From Candidatus Omnitrophota bacterium (lineage in GTDB: Bacteria > Omnitrophota > Gorgyraeia > Zapsychrales > JBDRMG01), in the NCBI GenBank assembly GCA_043812495.1, contig JBDRMG010000057.1, positions 1 through 49,854 of the forward strand: 49,854 nucleotides of DNA. Reading direction: 5' to 3'. Positions 834 through 45,521 of the stretch are shown here, piece by piece; the first letter of the stretch is position 1; the number at the start of each line of letters is the position of its first letter. A model generated the notes under the pieces. The model was not told where the DNA came from, made no database searches, and saw nothing but the letters and a program-made list of their open reading frames with translations. Both the position numbers and the translations under genes were made by a program.

Positions 834-1082
834 ATGGAATATACGGTTTATATTCTAAGAAGCAAATTAAATCCTGAGAAGTTTTATATTGGCTATACAA
901 CAGATTTAAAGAAACGATTAAAGAATCATCAACAACCGAACGAAAGTGCTTATACAAGACGATTTGCTCCTTGGGAGCTTGAAACATACGTTGTTTGCAA
1001 GAATGAACAAACAGCAAAGAACTTTGAAGAGTATCTAAAAAGTCATTCAGGAAGATCGTTCTTAAGGAAAAGATTGATTTAG
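834..1082 (+). CDS. small stand-alone GIY-YIG endonuclease (UPF0213/SLX1-like)
   Basis: YTVYILRS...FYIGYTTDLKKRLKNH...YT...PWEL...FEEYLKS motifs, 82 aa. Confidence 0.9.
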   Translation: MEYTVYILRSKLNPEKFYIGYTTDLKKRLKNHQQPNESAYTRRFAPWELETYVVCKNEQTAKNFEEYLKSHSGRSFLRKRLI

Positions 1083-14487: not shown

Positions 14488-14873
14488 AGGTATATTGAGT
14501 TAATGTGCGCAAACGCCATTTAGGCAAGTATTTCCAATAATCCAATATAATCTGTGGAAAACTGATTTCAAACTTACTTCTGTTATAATGGGACTACCTA
14601 ATCAGACCGATTGCTGGCATAATAATGCAGATATTTTTATTAATATTGATGAGGAATATTTTTGTATAAAAGATTAAAAATGGCTATAAAATACATCATA
14701 AATTGACCTAAAGATACATGAAAATGCCCCTCTTCTATTATGGAATATAAACGAAGAAGGGCCTTAAAAAGGCCCAGAAAGGGTCAAAATTGACCCTCTG
14801 AGCCTTTAATTTCAATTGATTGATAAAGTTTACTAACCCAAAAATGATAGTTAAAAACGAATGTTTTGGGCCT

Positions 14874-15281
14874 TCAAAATTCGACTTTTTGCGGGGTTTT
14901 ATCGCTTGGAGACATTGATTCCGCAGCCGAAATATTAACTTCAACTAAGGTGAAAATCTTGTCCTGAGGACCGCTGGCATACTGCTTTAATTGCGGCACA
15001 TGATTCCAAACCGTTTCTCTTTTGCCGGCATCTTGGCTGATTTTTGCTTGGCCCGTAATCCGGCAAAACGCCATTTTACGGTCAACAAAACAGAGTTCAA
15101 CCATGGGGTTTTTCTGGATCTGCTGGATGCTCCTTGAGTGAGATAAAATAGCGATTAATAGCTCGCCATCTTCGGATAAATAAGGACCAACCGGCCTGAC
15201 CCTTGGCTGGTTTCCTTCGTCTGTTGCCAGGAAGCCATACCCTGCATCTTTGACTAAATCAATGACATTTTGCTTGGTCAT
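14874..15281 (-). CDS. pyridoxamine 5'-phosphate oxidase-family FMN-binding protein
   Basis: FLAT..NQPRVRP, QIQKNPMVELCF, RITG.A motifs. Confidence 0.85.
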   Translation of the reverse strand: MTKQNVIDLVKDAGYGFLATDEGNQPRVRPVGPYLSEDGELLIAILSHSRSIQQIQKNPMVELCFVDRKMAFCRITGQAKISQDAGKRETVWNHVPQLKQYASGPQDKIFTLVEVNISAAESMSPSDKTPQKVEF

Positions 15282-24838: not shown

Positions 24839-25216
24839 CTAAGATAGACTAAAAACGTATTTTTTAATCTTTCCTCTTTCTTCATCGCTGATGTCAATGA
24901 ATTCAACGCCAACATCATAGCGATTCTTTCCTTCGCCAGCGATGCTGAAAGTTTTTGTCCAAACCACTTGCCCGATAGTCTGGATCATGGAGGGGTCGTC
25001 CGGCAAGGAGATGTCTAACTTTAAGCGGTCGCCGGGGAGCAATTCTTCATGAGTGATGATGCAGATACCGCCCGCACTGATATTTCTGGAGGAACCGCTG
25101 TGGTTATCACTCGAGGGAAGGACGGCGTATTTGATATCCACATTGATGTTTAGGCGTAAGAATTTTCTTCGTTCTTCAAAGACTGACTCCTTGTTATTTT
25201 GATCTTTATCAGCCAT
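24839..25216 (-). CDS. PilZ-domain protein
   Basis: ERRKFLR and NISAGG motifs. Confidence 0.92.
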   Translation of the reverse strand: MADKDQNNKESVFEERRKFLRLNINVDIKYAVLPSSDNHSGSSRNISAGGICIITHEELLPGDRLKLDISLPDDPSMIQTIGQVVWTKTFSIAGEGKNRYDVGVEFIDISDEERGKIKKYVFSLS

Positions 25217-27406: not shown

Positions 27407-28597
27407 TTAAATTTCTCTCCAAGCCGTGGGTGTTGTTTGGTATTCAACGGTTTGTTGTCCTTCGCCGCTTCCCATGATGAGCCCCTCAAAGCCCGGAGGA
27501 AGTTCTTCCAGAATCGATTCATCATAGTTGAATTCTTTCCAAGCCAAGGTCTCTTTGACATAAATTCTATCATTTCCGATGAGGCTGCCGTGGGTAGATG
27601 AAATGTCAAGAACATCGCGCAAATACGCATAACTATGGGAAAACGTTAAGCCGTCATGAGCGCTTACAAGAGCAGCCGGCTCATAATAATCACTCCAGGC
27701 AATGACATTCAACTTTGAGTCTTCTACGCCGATTTGTAAAGGTTGAATGTAATTAACCGACCCTGTCGAGATAATGGTTATATTCTGATTATCCTGCCAT
27801 GTCGCATCAAAGACAATGTTCACGTCACCGCCCCCCGGTGAATCACCCTCAACGAAAATAATCTTTTTTCCGCTAAAGTCAGCGTTAGGGGTGATTGTTA
27901 GAGTTCCGTTTCCAAGAAAATAGGCAACCTCCCCTTCAGGATACTGACTGATCAAATTGCGATTGAATTGTACAAAATCGACGAATTCATTAGGTGCGCT
28001 TGTTCCAACGCCGCGATCCACAAGATCTTGATCCAAGCTGTCATTGAGATCGGGATAGGTTAATATCGTTTCTTCAGAGCTAACATCCTCCACTAAATCA
28101 TCAAAATTGCCTGTAAGGTTCTTTCCTAAGTCGTCATAAACTCCTGAGCAGCGAGCCTTCCCGTGAACATTCATAACACCTAAATTTCCATCAAGATCGA
28201 TATTGCCCGCCGTTGACATAGTGTTATCAAAGATGGATAGCGGAACAACAGGAAAATCAATTTGGACTTGTTTTCGGATGCCATTGACGATACTCGAGGA
28301 TGTAACCGTTCGGACAGTCATATCATCCGCTTTGGCTAAGCTTACAGAATAGTTCCCCACGCTAAAATAGCCTATATTGCTGCCATCCAGCAAAGTCGTA
28401 TCTTCAATGAATCGCTGGACTCCCGCTTCGGCCAGCCAAAAGGCTTTAGCGGAATCACGGTAGCGTCTCGCATGGTTCAGCTCATTAACGGAAGATAGGG
28501 CAAATCCCGCTGTCATTGAAATCAAGACAGTCAAGAAAATGTAAGTTGTGATAAGGATAAATCCTTCCTTATTTCTTAGTTTCCCTTGTTTTTTCAT
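27407..28597 (-). CDS. PilX-like minor pilin/assembly protein
   Basis: GFILIT class III signal, AFWLAEAG motif, C-terminal WREI. Confidence 0.85.
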   Translation of the reverse strand: MKKQGKLRNKEGFILITTYIFLTVLISMTAGFALSSVNELNHARRYRDSAKAFWLAEAGVQRFIEDTTLLDGSNIGYFSVGNYSVSLAKADDMTVRTVTSSSIVNGIRKQVQIDFPVVPLSIFDNTMSTAGNIDLDGNLGVMNVHGKARCSGVYDDLGKNLTGNFDDLVEDVSSEETILTYPDLNDSLDQDLVDRGVGTSAPNEFVDFVQFNRNLISQYPEGEVAYFLGNGTLTITPNADFSGKKIIFVEGDSPGGGDVNIVFDATWQDNQNITIISTGSVNYIQPLQIGVEDSKLNVIAWSDYYEPAALVSAHDGLTFSHSYAYLRDVLDISSTHGSLIGNDRIYVKETLAWKEFNYDESILEELPPGFEGLIMGSGEGQQTVEYQTTPTAWREI

Positions 28598-28624: not shown

Positions 28625-29107
28625 TTATGTTCTTAAGGTAACCTTCTTCTTTAAATTCAGACTGATCGGATTGCCGTTGGGCGGAGTCGCGCTTGCCGTA
28701 ACATTGATCGTTACAGACGTTGTATTATCAATAAATGAAAGAGCGGAAATATCATGGGCGATCACATTGTCATTTCTCAGTATTTGATTTGCTTGAGCGC
28801 CTGACGTTGCCCAGGCGAACGTAATAGCTCCATAACCATCGCGACTAAAATTCACCTCAACGTTATTCGCATCTTGCGTAACGATCGAGAAATTTTCTGC
28901 CTCTCGAAGTTCGCGAGCCAGTGTCACTAGTGCCTGCCTTGCTTGCCGCTGAACTTCGGTGGAACACTGATATTGTTGCCAAGACAAATTACCCGTAGAA
29001 AAGCTCGAGTAAAGCAAGCTAACAACAAAGATAATAATAGCAACAGTAAAAAGCACTTCCACGAGTGAAAAACCGAAATTATTATTAAAGAACGACCTTT
29101 TTCTCAT
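28625..29107 (-). CDS. PilW-like prepilin
   Basis: GFSLVEV cleavage motif, RELREA. Confidence 0.88.
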   Translation of the reverse strand: MRKRSFFNNNFGFSLVEVLFTVAIIIFVVSLLYSSFSTGNLSWQQYQCSTEVQRQARQALVTLARELREAENFSIVTQDANNVEVNFSRDGYGAITFAWATSGAQANQILRNDNVIAHDISALSFIDNTTSVTINVTASATPPNGNPISLNLKKKVTLRT

Positions 29108-29133: not shown

Positions 29134-29529
29134 TTATGGCAATGTGCTGTTGGCGATTTGCGTTGTCAATCCAACATTGCCTGTTCGCCCATCTCTAGTC
29201 CAACTGACCGTTGTTTCAATAGCAAGAGGATCATCCTCGGCATTAACCAAAATAACAACGGACTCACTTGGTAACGTATTCAAACCTTCTGACTGCACCC
29301 ATCCGCTCCAATAATCTCCATTGACCAGATCACTATACGACGTTGTCCTCATCTCTTCTAAGATGTATTCTGCATGGGTCGTTGCCAGGGTTATGTCTCT
29401 TGCGTATTCACCGGCCTTAATAGAATTTGTAAAGAACAAAAGAGCACTGAGCATTCCAAGGACGATGACAAACATAGCAACCAAAAGTTCCGCTAAAGTC
29501 ATACCGCTTGAAACTCTATTTTGTCTCAT
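29134..29529 (-). CDS. PilV-like prepilin
   Basis: GMTLAEL cleavage motif, LEEMR, VSW. Confidence 0.88.
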   Translation of the reverse strand: MRQNRVSSGMTLAELLVAMFVIVLGMLSALLFFTNSIKAGEYARDITLATTHAEYILEEMRTTSYSDLVNGDYWSGWVQSEGLNTLPSESVVILVNAEDDPLAIETTVSWTRDGRTGNVGLTTQIANSTLP

Positions 29530-29546: not shown

Positions 29547-29575
29547 AAAAAAATCCTGTCAACAGGTTGACAGGA
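29547..29575 (-). terminator. intrinsic terminator in the pilin operon leader (likely riboswitch expression platform)
   Basis: TCCTGTCAAC stem followed by T7 on the minus strand, between aptamer and start codon. Confidence 0.75.
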
Positions 29576-29626
29576 AGTTACATTATCGCAAAATCCGATT
29601 CTCAACAAATCAATCGGCATTTGTTT

Positions 29627-29950
29627 GAATAATGCAACCCAGCTGTCTTAATGAGCGCATCACTTGCTGAGTCCGCATTGTTTCAGTGGCGGACGAAGTA
29701 AGTGATAAGCGCGAATTAACCCTTGACATTTTGCAAAAACAAAATGTCAAGGGTCAAATTCCGGCATGCAAATTACGTCACTTCGTTCCGTAAGTTGCGC
29801 CGTCATATGAAGACCTGTGGCTTTGCCTCAACTATCGGTCCTGCAGAGAGTTGAGATCCCTTTAAGGGACGTCCTACCCTTTCGAGTTCCGCCAAAATTA
29901 TTGGCGGATCCGCTGATGTTTAGTAGCGGAAGTTTGCCTTTATATTATCC
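29627..29950 (-). ncRNA. c-di-GMP-I (GEMM) riboswitch interrupted by three hairpin insertions
   Basis: removing 29651-29806, 29826-29869 and 29888-29930 gives GGATAATATAAAGGCAAACTACTCGAAAGGGTAGGACGCAAAGCCACAGGTCTTCATTAAGACAGCTGGGTTGCATTATTC. Confidence 0.88.
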
Positions 29951-30001
29951 ACTATATAAGTATAACATGTCTATCGAAAAAAGAAGTATTTTTGAGAAAT
30001 T

Positions 30002-32632
30002 TTAAAGTAATTCAGAAAGCGTTTTCTTGAGCTCTTTGAATTTGATTTGGATGGATTCCAAGCGGAGCCTTTCCTTTTGGATGACTTCTTGGGGAGCTTT
30101 CTTGAGGAATTCCTTATTTTTGAGGCGCTTAAGAAGACCCTTTCGCATATTCGTTTGTGCTTCTATTTGGGCCTCAAGGTTCTTCTTTTCTTTGGCCAAA
30201 TCAACGATATCTGTTAAGGGAATATAAAATTTAATCTTGCCGGCGAGTCCGGTGACCGAACCCTTTGGCTTTGTCATTTTTGACTTAATGGTCACCGTTT
30301 CGATTCTTCCGAGATTTTGGATGATGGAAGAATTCTCTTTGAGCAAAGAAGCCTGCTTTTTAATCGGGCATTGAGCGAGACACGCTATCTTGGCGGTTGG
30401 CTCTACATGCCATTGGGCGCGGATATTGCGGATAGTCGAAATCAGTTCAATCATCGTTTCCATGTCCCCTTGCGCCGACTTATCCAAGAGGGATTTCTGA
30501 ATCTTAGGCCAAGGGTAAAGCGCAAGGGAATCTTTGTTGTCCGTGAGATGATGCCAAATCTCTTCTGTGACAAAAGGCATGAAGGGATGCAGAATCCTCA
30601 ACGACTGCTCCAAGACGTGATACGCAACCGATTGAATGTCGCTTTGGTTAAAACGGTCTTTAATGATTTCCAAATACCAGTCGCAATAATTTTTCCAGAA
30701 GAACTCATAAATCAGATTCTCGGCTTCGGAGAATCGGTAGTGCTCGATCGCCTTGTTGATCTTTTCAAGGGCGCAAGTCAATTGCGATAAAATCCACCGG
30801 CTGGGTAAATCAAGAGTTTTTAAGGATAATCCCTCGATGGGCTTAATCTTTTCTTTTTGAATATTCATGAGCGCCAATCGCGAGGCGTTCCAGATTTTAT
30901 TGGCAAAATTACGGCCGATTTCGAATTTCTCTTTGGAAATAAAAAGGTCTTGCCCTGAGTTAATGATGAGGCTAAAGCGCAGTGCATCGGCCCCGTAATC
31001 TTTGATAATTTCCAAAGGGTCGATGGCGTTGCCCAGAGATTTAGACATTTTTAATCCCTTGGCGTCCCGAACGGTCCCGTGAATATAGACGTCCGAGAAC
31101 GGAATGTCGCCCTTAAATTCCAAGCCTGCCATAATCATGCGAGCAACCCAGAAGAAAATGATTTCGGACGCCGTAAACAAGGACGATGTCGGATAAAAGA
31201 AATCAAGATCTTCGTTTTTTTGCGGCCAGCCAAACGTGGCCAGCGGCCAGAGCCATGAAGAAAACCACGTGTCCAATACATCCTCATCTTGATGAAGGTT
31301 TCTGGATTGACATTGGGGACAGCATTCCGGGGTATCCGCCGAGACGATTATATTTTTATCATCCGGGCAATCTTGGCAGTACCAGACGGGGATGCGGTGG
31401 CCCCACCAGATTTGCCGCGAAATGCACCAATCACGGATATTATCCATCCAATTCAAATAGACTTTGCTCCAGCGTGCGGGAAAGAATTTGATTTTGTTTT
31501 TTCTGACCACTTCAGTAGCCGGTTTGGCCAAAGGTTTCATTTTGACAAACCATTGCTTGGAAAGATAAGGCTCAATCACCGAATGACATCGATAGCAGTG
31601 TCCGACGGCATGCGTGTGAGGCTCGATCTTTTCAATGAGCTTCTGTTCTTTGAGTTCTTCGACAATAGCTTCTCTGGCTTCAAAGCGATCCATGTTGCAA
31701 AAATCACCGGCATTTTCATTGAGACGCGCGTCCGGATGCATGATGTTAACGAACTTCAGCTGATGACGCTGGCCCATGAGAAAATCGTTGGGATCATGCG
31801 CCGGGGTCACCTTAACGGCGCCAGTTCCGAATTTCGGGTCAACAAATTCATCCGCAAGAATTTTTATTTCTCTTTTCATCAAAGGCAAGATCAACGCTTT
31901 GCCGATGAGATTTTTGTAGCGTTTATCTTTGGGATGGACCGCAACCGCTGTATCACCAAGCATGGTTTCCGGCCGGGTGGTCGCGACCACAACATAATCT
32001 TGGGGATGATCTTTCAGTGGATAGCGAATGTAATACAGAGCCCCTTGCGTTTCTCTGTGTTCGGATTCTTCGTCCGACAAAGCTGTTTCGCAGCGCGGAC
32101 ACCAGTTGATGATATATTGACCGCGGTAAATCAAGCCTTTTTCATAGAGCTTCACAAAAACAGTTTTGACGGCCCTTGAGTAGCCTTCGTCCATTGTGAA
32201 GCGCGTACGCGGCCAATCACAGGAGCATCCCAGTCTTTCCAATTGGCGGATAATGGTATCGCCATATTCTTGCTTCCATTGCCAAAGGCGTTTCAAAAAT
32301 TCTTCACGCCCAACATCGTGACGGGTTTTTCCTTCTTTGGCGAGCTGTTTCTCGACAACATTCTGAGTGGCAATTCCGGCATGATCCGTGCCCGGCATCC
32401 AGCAGGTTTCAAATCCCTGCATGCGTTTAAAGCGAATGGTGATATCCTGGAGGGTGTTGTTGAGGGCATGGCCCATATGCAGGATGCCCGTGACATTGGG
32501 CGGTGGAATCACGATGCAATACGGTTTTTTGGATGGATTGGCTTTGGCGTGAAAAGTGTTGTGCTCTTTCCAAAACTTCAGCCACTTCTCTTCCGTTTCC
32601 TGTGGATTATAGCGAGTGGATAGTTCGACCAT
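30002..32632 (-). CDS. valS: valine--tRNA ligase
   Basis: PPPNVTGILHMGH, WCISRQIWWGH, DVLDTWFSS, KMSKS, C-terminal coiled coil. Confidence 0.98.
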   Translation of the reverse strand: MVELSTRYNPQETEEKWLKFWKEHNTFHAKANPSKKPYCIVIPPPNVTGILHMGHALNNTLQDITIRFKRMQGFETCWMPGTDHAGIATQNVVEKQLAKEGKTRHDVGREEFLKRLWQWKQEYGDTIIRQLERLGCSCDWPRTRFTMDEGYSRAVKTVFVKLYEKGLIYRGQYIINWCPRCETALSDEESEHRETQGALYYIRYPLKDHPQDYVVVATTRPETMLGDTAVAVHPKDKRYKNLIGKALILPLMKREIKILADEFVDPKFGTGAVKVTPAHDPNDFLMGQRHQLKFVNIMHPDARLNENAGDFCNMDRFEAREAIVEELKEQKLIEKIEPHTHAVGHCYRCHSVIEPYLSKQWFVKMKPLAKPATEVVRKNKIKFFPARWSKVYLNWMDNIRDWCISRQIWWGHRIPVWYCQDCPDDKNIIVSADTPECCPQCQSRNLHQDEDVLDTWFSSWLWPLATFGWPQKNEDLDFFYPTSSLFTASEIIFFWVARMIMAGLEFKGDIPFSDVYIHGTVRDAKGLKMSKSLGNAIDPLEIIKDYGADALRFSLIINSGQDLFISKEKFEIGRNFANKIWNASRLALMNIQKEKIKPIEGLSLKTLDLPSRWILSQLTCALEKINKAIEHYRFSEAENLIYEFFWKNYCDWYLEIIKDRFNQSDIQSVAYHVLEQSLRILHPFMPFVTEEIWHHLTDNKDSLALYPWPKIQKSLLDKSAQGDMETMIELISTIRNIRAQWHVEPTAKIACLAQCPIKKQASLLKENSSIIQNLGRIETVTIKSKMTKPKGSVTGLAGKIKFYIPLTDIVDLAKEKKNLEAQIEAQTNMRKGLLKRLKNKEFLKKAPQEVIQKERLRLESIQIKFKELKKTLSELL

Positions 32633-45155: not shown

Positions 45156-45521
45156 AGCCGATGAGAGGCTTCGTCCGTCATCCCGACTTTTCGTCTGGAT
45201 GACGAGATCTCGCCCGTCATTTGCCTTTGGCAAATGACGAGGCGGAAACCCCCGACCCGCTGATTACCCTCGCTATCGCTCGGGATTAATTCGCGCAGTA
45301 ACTTACGTCACTTATGTTCCGTAAGTTACGCGCTCATGAACAAATCAGCTGTCCGTCCCGCCTTTCCTCTGAATTAATTGTTGAGGTCGGGACTTGCAGG
45401 CTTTTCTGTAAATACATTATTGAAGCCGACACTTCGGCTTCCACAATAAAATATGAGAAGAGCCGAAGCGACTTCCAAAATGCAAAAAACAAGAAGAGTC
45501 GGAGCAGCTGAGCTACAAAGC
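45156..45521 (-). pseudogene. copy of tRNA-Thr(TGT) broken by insertions in T-loop, anticodon and D-loop
   Basis: segments agccgatgagaggcttcg / aacccccgacccgctgatta / caaatcagctg / cagctgagctaca match 45655-45727 in order. Confidence 0.85.

Follow-up and report, generated by a model that had tools for sequence, protein, structure and literature searches.

A c-di-GMP-I riboswitch split by three inserts, two of them abutting twin hairpins, upstream of pilin genes in an Omnitrophota bacterium

How could a riboswitch aptamer cut into four pieces by three inserts still sense its ligand, and where would such inserts come from? The locus that raises this question lies in a 49,854-nt stretch of DNA (the window), which is contig C57 of the 1.94-Mb, 90%-complete source genome (G000) of a Candidatus Omnitrophota bacterium. 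On the minus strand, to which the coordinates of the locus refer, valS (30002–32632; Pfam tRNA-synt_1 and Val_tRNA-synt_C) is followed by a 470-nt leader, two genes with a pilin N terminus and a PilX-like gene; a PilZ gene lies farther downstream. The first gene under the leader (29134–29529, 131 aa) matches PF07963 at 21.5 bits (cut-off 21.2), in line with the pilin context reported by an earlier note made from the sequence alone; the second (28625–29107, 160 aa) scores 20.8 bits, slightly below the cut-off. The 396-aa gene that comes next (27407–28597) is syntenic and has no Pfam match, and we take it to be PilX-like from its N terminus and position. The PilZ domain stands alone in its gene (24839–25216), which belongs to the same gene run and is a second possible c-di-GMP input. 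Elsewhere the genome has 12 GGDEF matches and six Rfam c-di-GMP-I matches. An extended -10 promoter element, TGnTATACT, is predicted by sequence at 29959–29967, and one is found upstream of the aptamer in 8/8 orthologues; an automated promoter scan chose a different site, overlapping P1.

To reconstruct the host RNA, we removed inserts of 43, 44 and 156 nt by script from 29950–29627, obtaining an 81-nt aptamer whose minimum free energy structure is the canonical three-helix P1/P2/P3 fold with a GNRA loop. On a sequence-only HMM built from 30 relatives that pass Rfam, the orthologue being excluded, and used here in place of the RF01051 covariance model, the excised host scored 47.3 bits and the native locus 5.4 bits; 33 reference aptamers scored 37.1–63.6 bits on the same HMM. 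None of 3,000 random triple deletions of the same lengths reached 47.3 bits (best, 42.9), and the best of 2,000 shuffles scored 4.1. A search of the native window with Rfam, at the gathering cut-off and at E ≤ 10, gave no c-di-GMP match at the locus. The orthologous valS–pilin locus of a sister genus (G001) carries the same switch uninterrupted, at 69.1 bits on RF01051, and by sequence comparison this is the decisive outside evidence for the identity of the switch.

The four aptamer pieces retain the equivalents of the ligand pocket. Piece 1 (29931–29950) holds the 5′ strand of P1, G20 (29938), G21–C22, A23–A25 and the first two bases of P2, and it ends at insert 1 (29888–29930), a 43-nt twin hairpin at the 27|28 bond of the P2 5′ strand. 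Piece 2 (29871–29887) contains the upper stem of P2, the GAAA tetraloop and C44 (29871); it is followed by insert 2 (29827–29870), a 44-nt twin of 15 + 29 nt at the C44|G45 bond. In both twins, the hairpins abut with a linker of zero length. Piece 3 (29807–29826) consists of G45–C46, A47 (29824), to which we ascribe a pocket role, and the 5′ strand of P3, whose loop is occupied by the 156-nt insert 3 (29651–29806). Piece 4 (29627–29650) supplies the 3′ strand of P3, G83 (29643), C92 (29634) and the 3′ strand of P1, and includes 15 consecutive columns that are invariant across eight orthologues. The pairs C44–G83 (29871/29643), G21–C46 and C22–G45 thus have their equivalents, and the core is unchanged at every column conserved across the cores of the other orthologues. 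Residues were mapped in Vc2 numbering, as it appears in parts of PMC11705072. Its sequence, its fold and the residues of its pocket place the RNA in the c-di-GMP-I class, and ligand binding is predicted.

Most of what the earlier note had read from the letters holds at this level: the c-di-GMP-I identity, the three inserts of 156, 44 and 43 bp, the retained G20 and C92 equivalents, and the expectation that a covariance search would miss the native locus. Its motifs and insert junctions are also where it placed them, except that insert 2 fits best one base earlier, at GGAC|GCAAAGC, a shift that keeps the host sequence the same and lets both hairpins close without an unpaired base. An assembly artefact can be set aside, as the same bonds are filled in many genomes and a public contig spanning 29573–29791, including the insert-3 junction, shows no difference (depth 2; the junctions of inserts 1 and 2 lie outside it).

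We then asked how the three inserts are distributed among eight orthologous loci, seven of which share valS synteny; the eighth (G008) was identified by its pilins and 3′ motif, with valS outside its locus. An insert of 31–54 nt sits at exactly the C44|G45 bond in seven of the eight. The sequences of these inserts differ, and all split into two abutting hairpins, that of G008 with one early mismatch; the first hairpin is related in six orthologues and different in G007. Where present, the ValS C termini of these loci are 36–51% identical to that of G000, so insert 2 must be deep, and the earlier suggestion that the inserts are very recent fails for it. None of the seven other orthologues has insert 1 or insert 3. 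G001 has likely lost insert 2 precisely, a reading of the sequences that follows from the sister relationship of G000 and G001 in the taxonomy and in a midpoint-rooted pilin tree (98/95); a tree of ValS C termini gave no resolution. A class-wide hunt for further orthologues via the 3′ motif hit 3/301 genomes, none of them new. In G005, G028 and G053 (L270, L271 and L272), valS runs straight into a nadC-like gene, with no switch or pilin block there.

Interruption of the C44|G45 bond extends well beyond these orthologues. An order-wide search with a pattern of the flanks only gave 67 matches in 47/168 genomes, compared with 2 for the reversed pattern; seven of the 67 were canonical switches on inspection. 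A scan across all species genomes gave about 180 stretches; the 120 of them that were examined are mostly labelled Omnitrophota or uncultured Planctomycetia, with a few from other groups. From 145 distinct candidates we kept 132, dropping 13 with fewer than four of five P2 pairs or an HMM score below 26. Perfect zero-linker twins make up 102/132 of these inserts, as against 5/3,960 dinucleotide shuffles, and 117/132 are twins with at most two unpaired bases (126/3,960 shuffles), counts that come from kin genomes and are not independent events. Five of the remaining 15 look mis-cut at the inner motif. Clustering by sequence divides the 117 inserts into 94 groups, their hosts have five types of P3, and across the site lengths range from 25 to 82 nt with freely varying sequence: to judge from these comparisons, it is the shape that is conserved and not the sequence. 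Because G20, C44 and A47 were fixed in the search patterns, finding them conserved among the loci collected adds no independent evidence. Downstream terminators were found for 93/117 interrupted aptamers, 32/38 canonical ones and 26/150 random stretches. When 20 singly interrupted loci were run against Rfam, 15 scored 35.3–45.9 bits (cut-off 35) and five were missed.

Such persistence could mean that the twins have been co-opted, tuning affinity, folding speed or RNA stability, or binding a protein, and are kept for that role and not merely tolerated. The retention of insert 2 in seven of eight deep orthologues would fit, as would the C–G pair that closes the second hairpin in 81/102 perfect twins. 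Against this stand the orthologue of the sister genus, a full-scoring switch that lacks exactly insert 2, and the free variation of insert sequence and length, and we consider co-option improbable.

The bond that holds insert 1 is filled elsewhere too. An order-wide pattern for this site gave 31 matches (14 for the reversed-pattern control), and after exclusion of four loci that are canonical switches with a chance upstream motif, 12/30 loci in the order-wide search have perfect twins at this bond, three more loci have them at three other P2 bonds, and three metagenome contigs add further site-1 twins. Twins at other P2 bonds were seen in L224, L228, L234 and, by eye only, L208. Within G000, the closest copy of insert 1, 82% identical, is of the same family and at the same P2 bond in a paralogue on contig C39. 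Twins at both bonds occur together in nine other aptamers, which keep four or five of five P2 pairs, score 36.6–59.7 bits when excised and have a terminator in 8/9 cases (5/15 rows of this set were dropped as false or single-insert parses); both inserts are common to two congeneric species, with changed loops. G000 has two more interrupted c-di-GMP-I switches, one with twins at both bonds (C39:2965-3170, minus strand) and one in a tandem arrangement with an 82-nt twin at C44|G45 (C16:89720-90028, plus strand).

Insert 3 is of another kind. By genome blast and folding, it is a composite element built from the most abundant repeats in G000 (116 blast rows, self included), with a closing stem, three abutting hairpins and two inverted units; its best long matches in the genome are 73–81% identical, at most about 81% over ≥70 nt. 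Its place, the P3 loop, varies freely among orthologues and has long extensions in Rfam-passing copies. More copies of its modules lie in the window (45288–45337 and 2969–2999; one between tRNA genes).

Does the triply interrupted RNA still fold as an aptamer? In the predicted fold of the native aptamer, the insert stems form at probabilities of 0.70–1.0, and P1, upper P2 and distal P3 all form; the pocket pairs G21–C46 and C22–G45 have probability 0. The predicted fold of the entire leader lies 10.6 SD below those of shuffles. The ViennaRNA penalty is 2.8–3.6 kcal/mol for each twin, 6–7 kcal/mol with both and 0 for insert 3. These folds support the possibility, also raised in the earlier note, that the inserts loop out as self-folding arms, and we propose that each folds on itself in a way that would not disturb the helices or the pocket of the aptamer. 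Two abutting hairpins could stack end to end into a rod whose entry and exit points would be about one backbone step apart, and the stacked twin would then stand in for one phosphodiester step, its hairpins forming the two lateral arms of a four-way junction, something a single hairpin could not do. End-to-end stacking with adjacent free ends would account for the zero-linker rule. We left out a count of twin against single hairpin modules, which is confounded by enclosing stems. Insert 2 would have entered early and been kept by selection on shape; inserts 1 and 3 would be later insertions at the DNA level, insert 1 at another bond that tolerates them and insert 3 in the P3 loop, which is free to vary.

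Taking sequence, recurrence and folding together, we think it fairly probable that the locus is a c-di-GMP-I OFF switch of the pilin operon that still works, with its inserts folded out as arms of four-way junctions, and we rate function of the native triply interrupted copy as likely. The GGDEF matches of the genome are in keeping with this reading. Against it stand the predicted cost of the twins, which makes the two pocket pairs drop out of the native fold, and a terminator that can also form in the predicted ligand-free folds. A competing account is that the switch with insert 2 worked, and that insert 1, insert 3 or both broke it too recently for the core to decay, leaving the pilin operon unregulated by c-di-GMP. 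Inserts 1 and 3 are indeed private to G000 among the eight orthologues, the penalty predicted with both twins is sizeable, and the nearest relative compared belongs to a different genus, with a ValS C terminus 49% identical, and so gives no dating. The identity of inserts 1 and 3 to their nearest copies (about 73–82%) nevertheless suggests some residence time, the nine other doubly interrupted aptamers have intact cores, and insert 3 is predicted to be free of cost at a position where other copies pass Rfam with long extensions. We regard recent breakage as possible, on the doubtful side.

If the switch works, its expected logic can be read from the leader. Pairing between the 3′ strand of the aptamer and a stretch that covers the 5′ arm of the terminator (29569–29587 in G000) is predicted in 8/8 orthologues, so an OFF switch is predicted. 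The intrinsic terminator lies at 29547–29575, as the earlier note had it, with its stem at 29575–29554 followed by a T run, and all eight orthologues have an equivalent. Without ligand, the 3′ strand of the aptamer would pair with 29587–29569 and block the 5′ arm; with c-di-GMP, P1 would be held and the terminator freed, and transcription would stop before the pilin genes. In the full-length fold of G000, the lower antiterminator helix leaves room for the terminator to form alongside it. The terminator forms ligand-free at equilibrium in 6/8 orthologues, so switching would have to be kinetic.

This architecture is that of the c-di-GMP-I class (RF01051; V. cholerae Vc2, C. difficile Cd1), with the same P1, P2 with GNRA loop and P3, equivalents of G20, G21–C46, C22–G45, C44–G83 and C92, and a downstream intrinsic terminator, and its predicted OFF logic resembles that of C. 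difficile class I switches in the parts of PMC11705072 and PMC6366702 that concern them. It differs from known members in two extra predicted four-way junctions in P2, one of them beside the pocket, and a 156-nt P3 arm, which bring it to 324 nt as against about 81–87 nt; the Rfam model does not pick up the native form.

The inserts might instead be removed from the RNA like introns, restoring the 81-nt aptamer, which was the third fate that the earlier note had offered them. A structure-reading excision enzyme would also keep the zero-linker geometry, and twins occur in a conserved junction of RNase P RNA as well. Terminator decisions are made co-transcriptionally, and this leaves little time for three excisions. 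The inserts share no terminal sequence, their ends being variable across 94 clusters among 117, and the Rfam search gave no intron match at the locus, where we found no conserved splice-site sequence or catalytic core. The repeats also avoid coding sequence: only 6/247 copies of four repeat modules lie in ORF interiors, though these make up 68% of the genome, in a count that genes broken by an insert escape. The sole twin seen in a coding gene of a relative is in frame. Fungal double-hairpin elements, moreover, reportedly stay in transcripts, according to passages of PMC2800124. We consider excision very unlikely.

Where else does the insert-1 family occur? A pattern for this dispersed family of 42-nt twin hairpins found 29 copies in 18/168 genomes and none in the control. 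Its hosts include structured RNAs, namely c-di-GMP-I aptamers and RNase P RNA, as well as 5′ tRNA fragments that neighbour intact tRNAs, stretches ahead of start codons, other repeats and a single coding gene, and related twins are also present at the C44|G45 bond of aptamers. The coding gene (L350, G134:C5:497-538), presumably a YifB/ComM relative, holds a 42-nt twin in frame and in reverse orientation. In RNase P RNA, a particular bond is filled by a zero-linker twin in 8/39 anchored sequences (L314, L315, L316, L338, L348, L352, L353 and L365, in eight genomes of several families) and is empty in 31, the filled set being biased, with four of the eight found via the element pattern and one by length (unbiased, 3/29). 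Searches for the RNase P protein with PF00825 gave no match in five of five genomes (G000, G001, G020, G028 and G035), where the protein is divergent or absent, and for this reason we do not claim that the RNase P RNA is essential here. The RNase P RNA of G000 (L278, C29 at about 14560–15230) scores 74.7 bits, below the cut-off, and has large repeat inserts; it is without the conserved P9–P12 stretch seen in 39/41 parsed sequences, which may be a real deletion or an assembly collapse between similar hairpins.

At four places in G000, a 5′ tRNA fragment with a twin is followed by a small GIY-YIG gene (C51:7940-8300, C62:23400-23640, C18:44400-44950 and C66:14480-15040), and in three of them an empty copy of the same tRNA start comes after that gene. 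Comparison of filled with empty fragments (C51, C18 and C66) revealed no target duplication, nor was one found at inserts 1 and 2; insert 3 may have a 2-nt target-site repeat. The presence of twins in non-functional tRNA fragments suggests that the insertion process itself delivers twins, and that selection decides which bonds keep them. An orientation test returned the forward direction in 17 of 26 cases and the reverse in one, with eight ties, a weak signal from markers that were picked after seeing the data.

Rickettsia palindromic elements and MITEs are likewise short palindromes that repeat and that invade genes for RNAs as well as, in frame, genes for proteins; from these the present elements differ in showing no target-site duplication at empty/filled pairs and in their twin geometry at fixed bonds. 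A closer parallel is found in the double-hairpin elements (DHEs) of fungal mitochondria (Paquin et al. 2000), which passages of PMC2800124 and PMC10085805 describe as small, GC-rich, potentially mobile pairs of hairpins that lie in RNA genes without flanking duplication. The Omnitrophota elements likewise have two consecutive hairpins, dispersed copies and filled and empty sites without target duplication, but they are bacterial, and they lie within conserved cores, those of an aptamer and of RNase P RNA, while the same passages have DHEs avoiding parts of structural importance; we see a functional analogue and imply no homology. REPINs with their RAYT transposases, as presented in parts of PMC3337134, pair two dispersed palindromic units inverted around a spacer, an arrangement that fits insert 3, and G000 has Y1 transposase-family matches; inserts 1 and 2 are abutting hairpins and not inverted doublets, and their sites are inside structured RNAs. 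The literature that we searched held no description of the split-aptamer variant or of the element, although riboswitch alignments in supplements might hold such variants.

Taken together with the aptamer, these copies allow a broader and tentative proposal, which may well not hold: that Omnitrophota harbour a class of very small mobile elements, each a twin hairpin, whose insertion has a fixed polarity, duplicates no target sequence and takes place between two bases of a folded RNA gene or of its single-stranded DNA; that the elements are structurally silent, with stacked hairpins acting as a linker of zero length; that this aptamer is a working sensor with two such junctions in P2; and that many RNAs of these lineages are hidden from covariance models. 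Should the native RNA bind its ligand, a well-studied aptamer would tolerate bulky insertions at a bond beside its pocket, provided that they are two abutting hairpins, a simple rule that experiments could test and that would bear on how RNAs evolve and on how tags might be engineered into them. Rfam would then also undercount the c-di-GMP regulons of the phylum, the triply interrupted copy being invisible to it. The shared element family would point to one mobility mechanism behind the insertions in riboswitches, RNase P RNA and tRNA. What is new here is the series of orthologues, the statistics on hairpin geometry, a further bond that takes inserts, aptamers interrupted at both bonds, and the connection with the element of RNase P RNA and tRNA fragments.

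As candidates for the mobility function, G000 offers seven matches to the Y1 transposase family (PF01797) and 15 small GIY-YIG genes, of which four come immediately 3′ of a twin-bearing tRNA fragment. A search for reverse transcriptase gave no match at E ≤ 0.1 in this 90%-complete genome, and a relaxed ARAGORN scan for interrupted tRNAs gave noise and was set aside. The window has a small GIY-YIG gene of its own (840–1055, plus strand), which comes after a nest of hairpin repeats and lies near tRNA-Lys (297–369).
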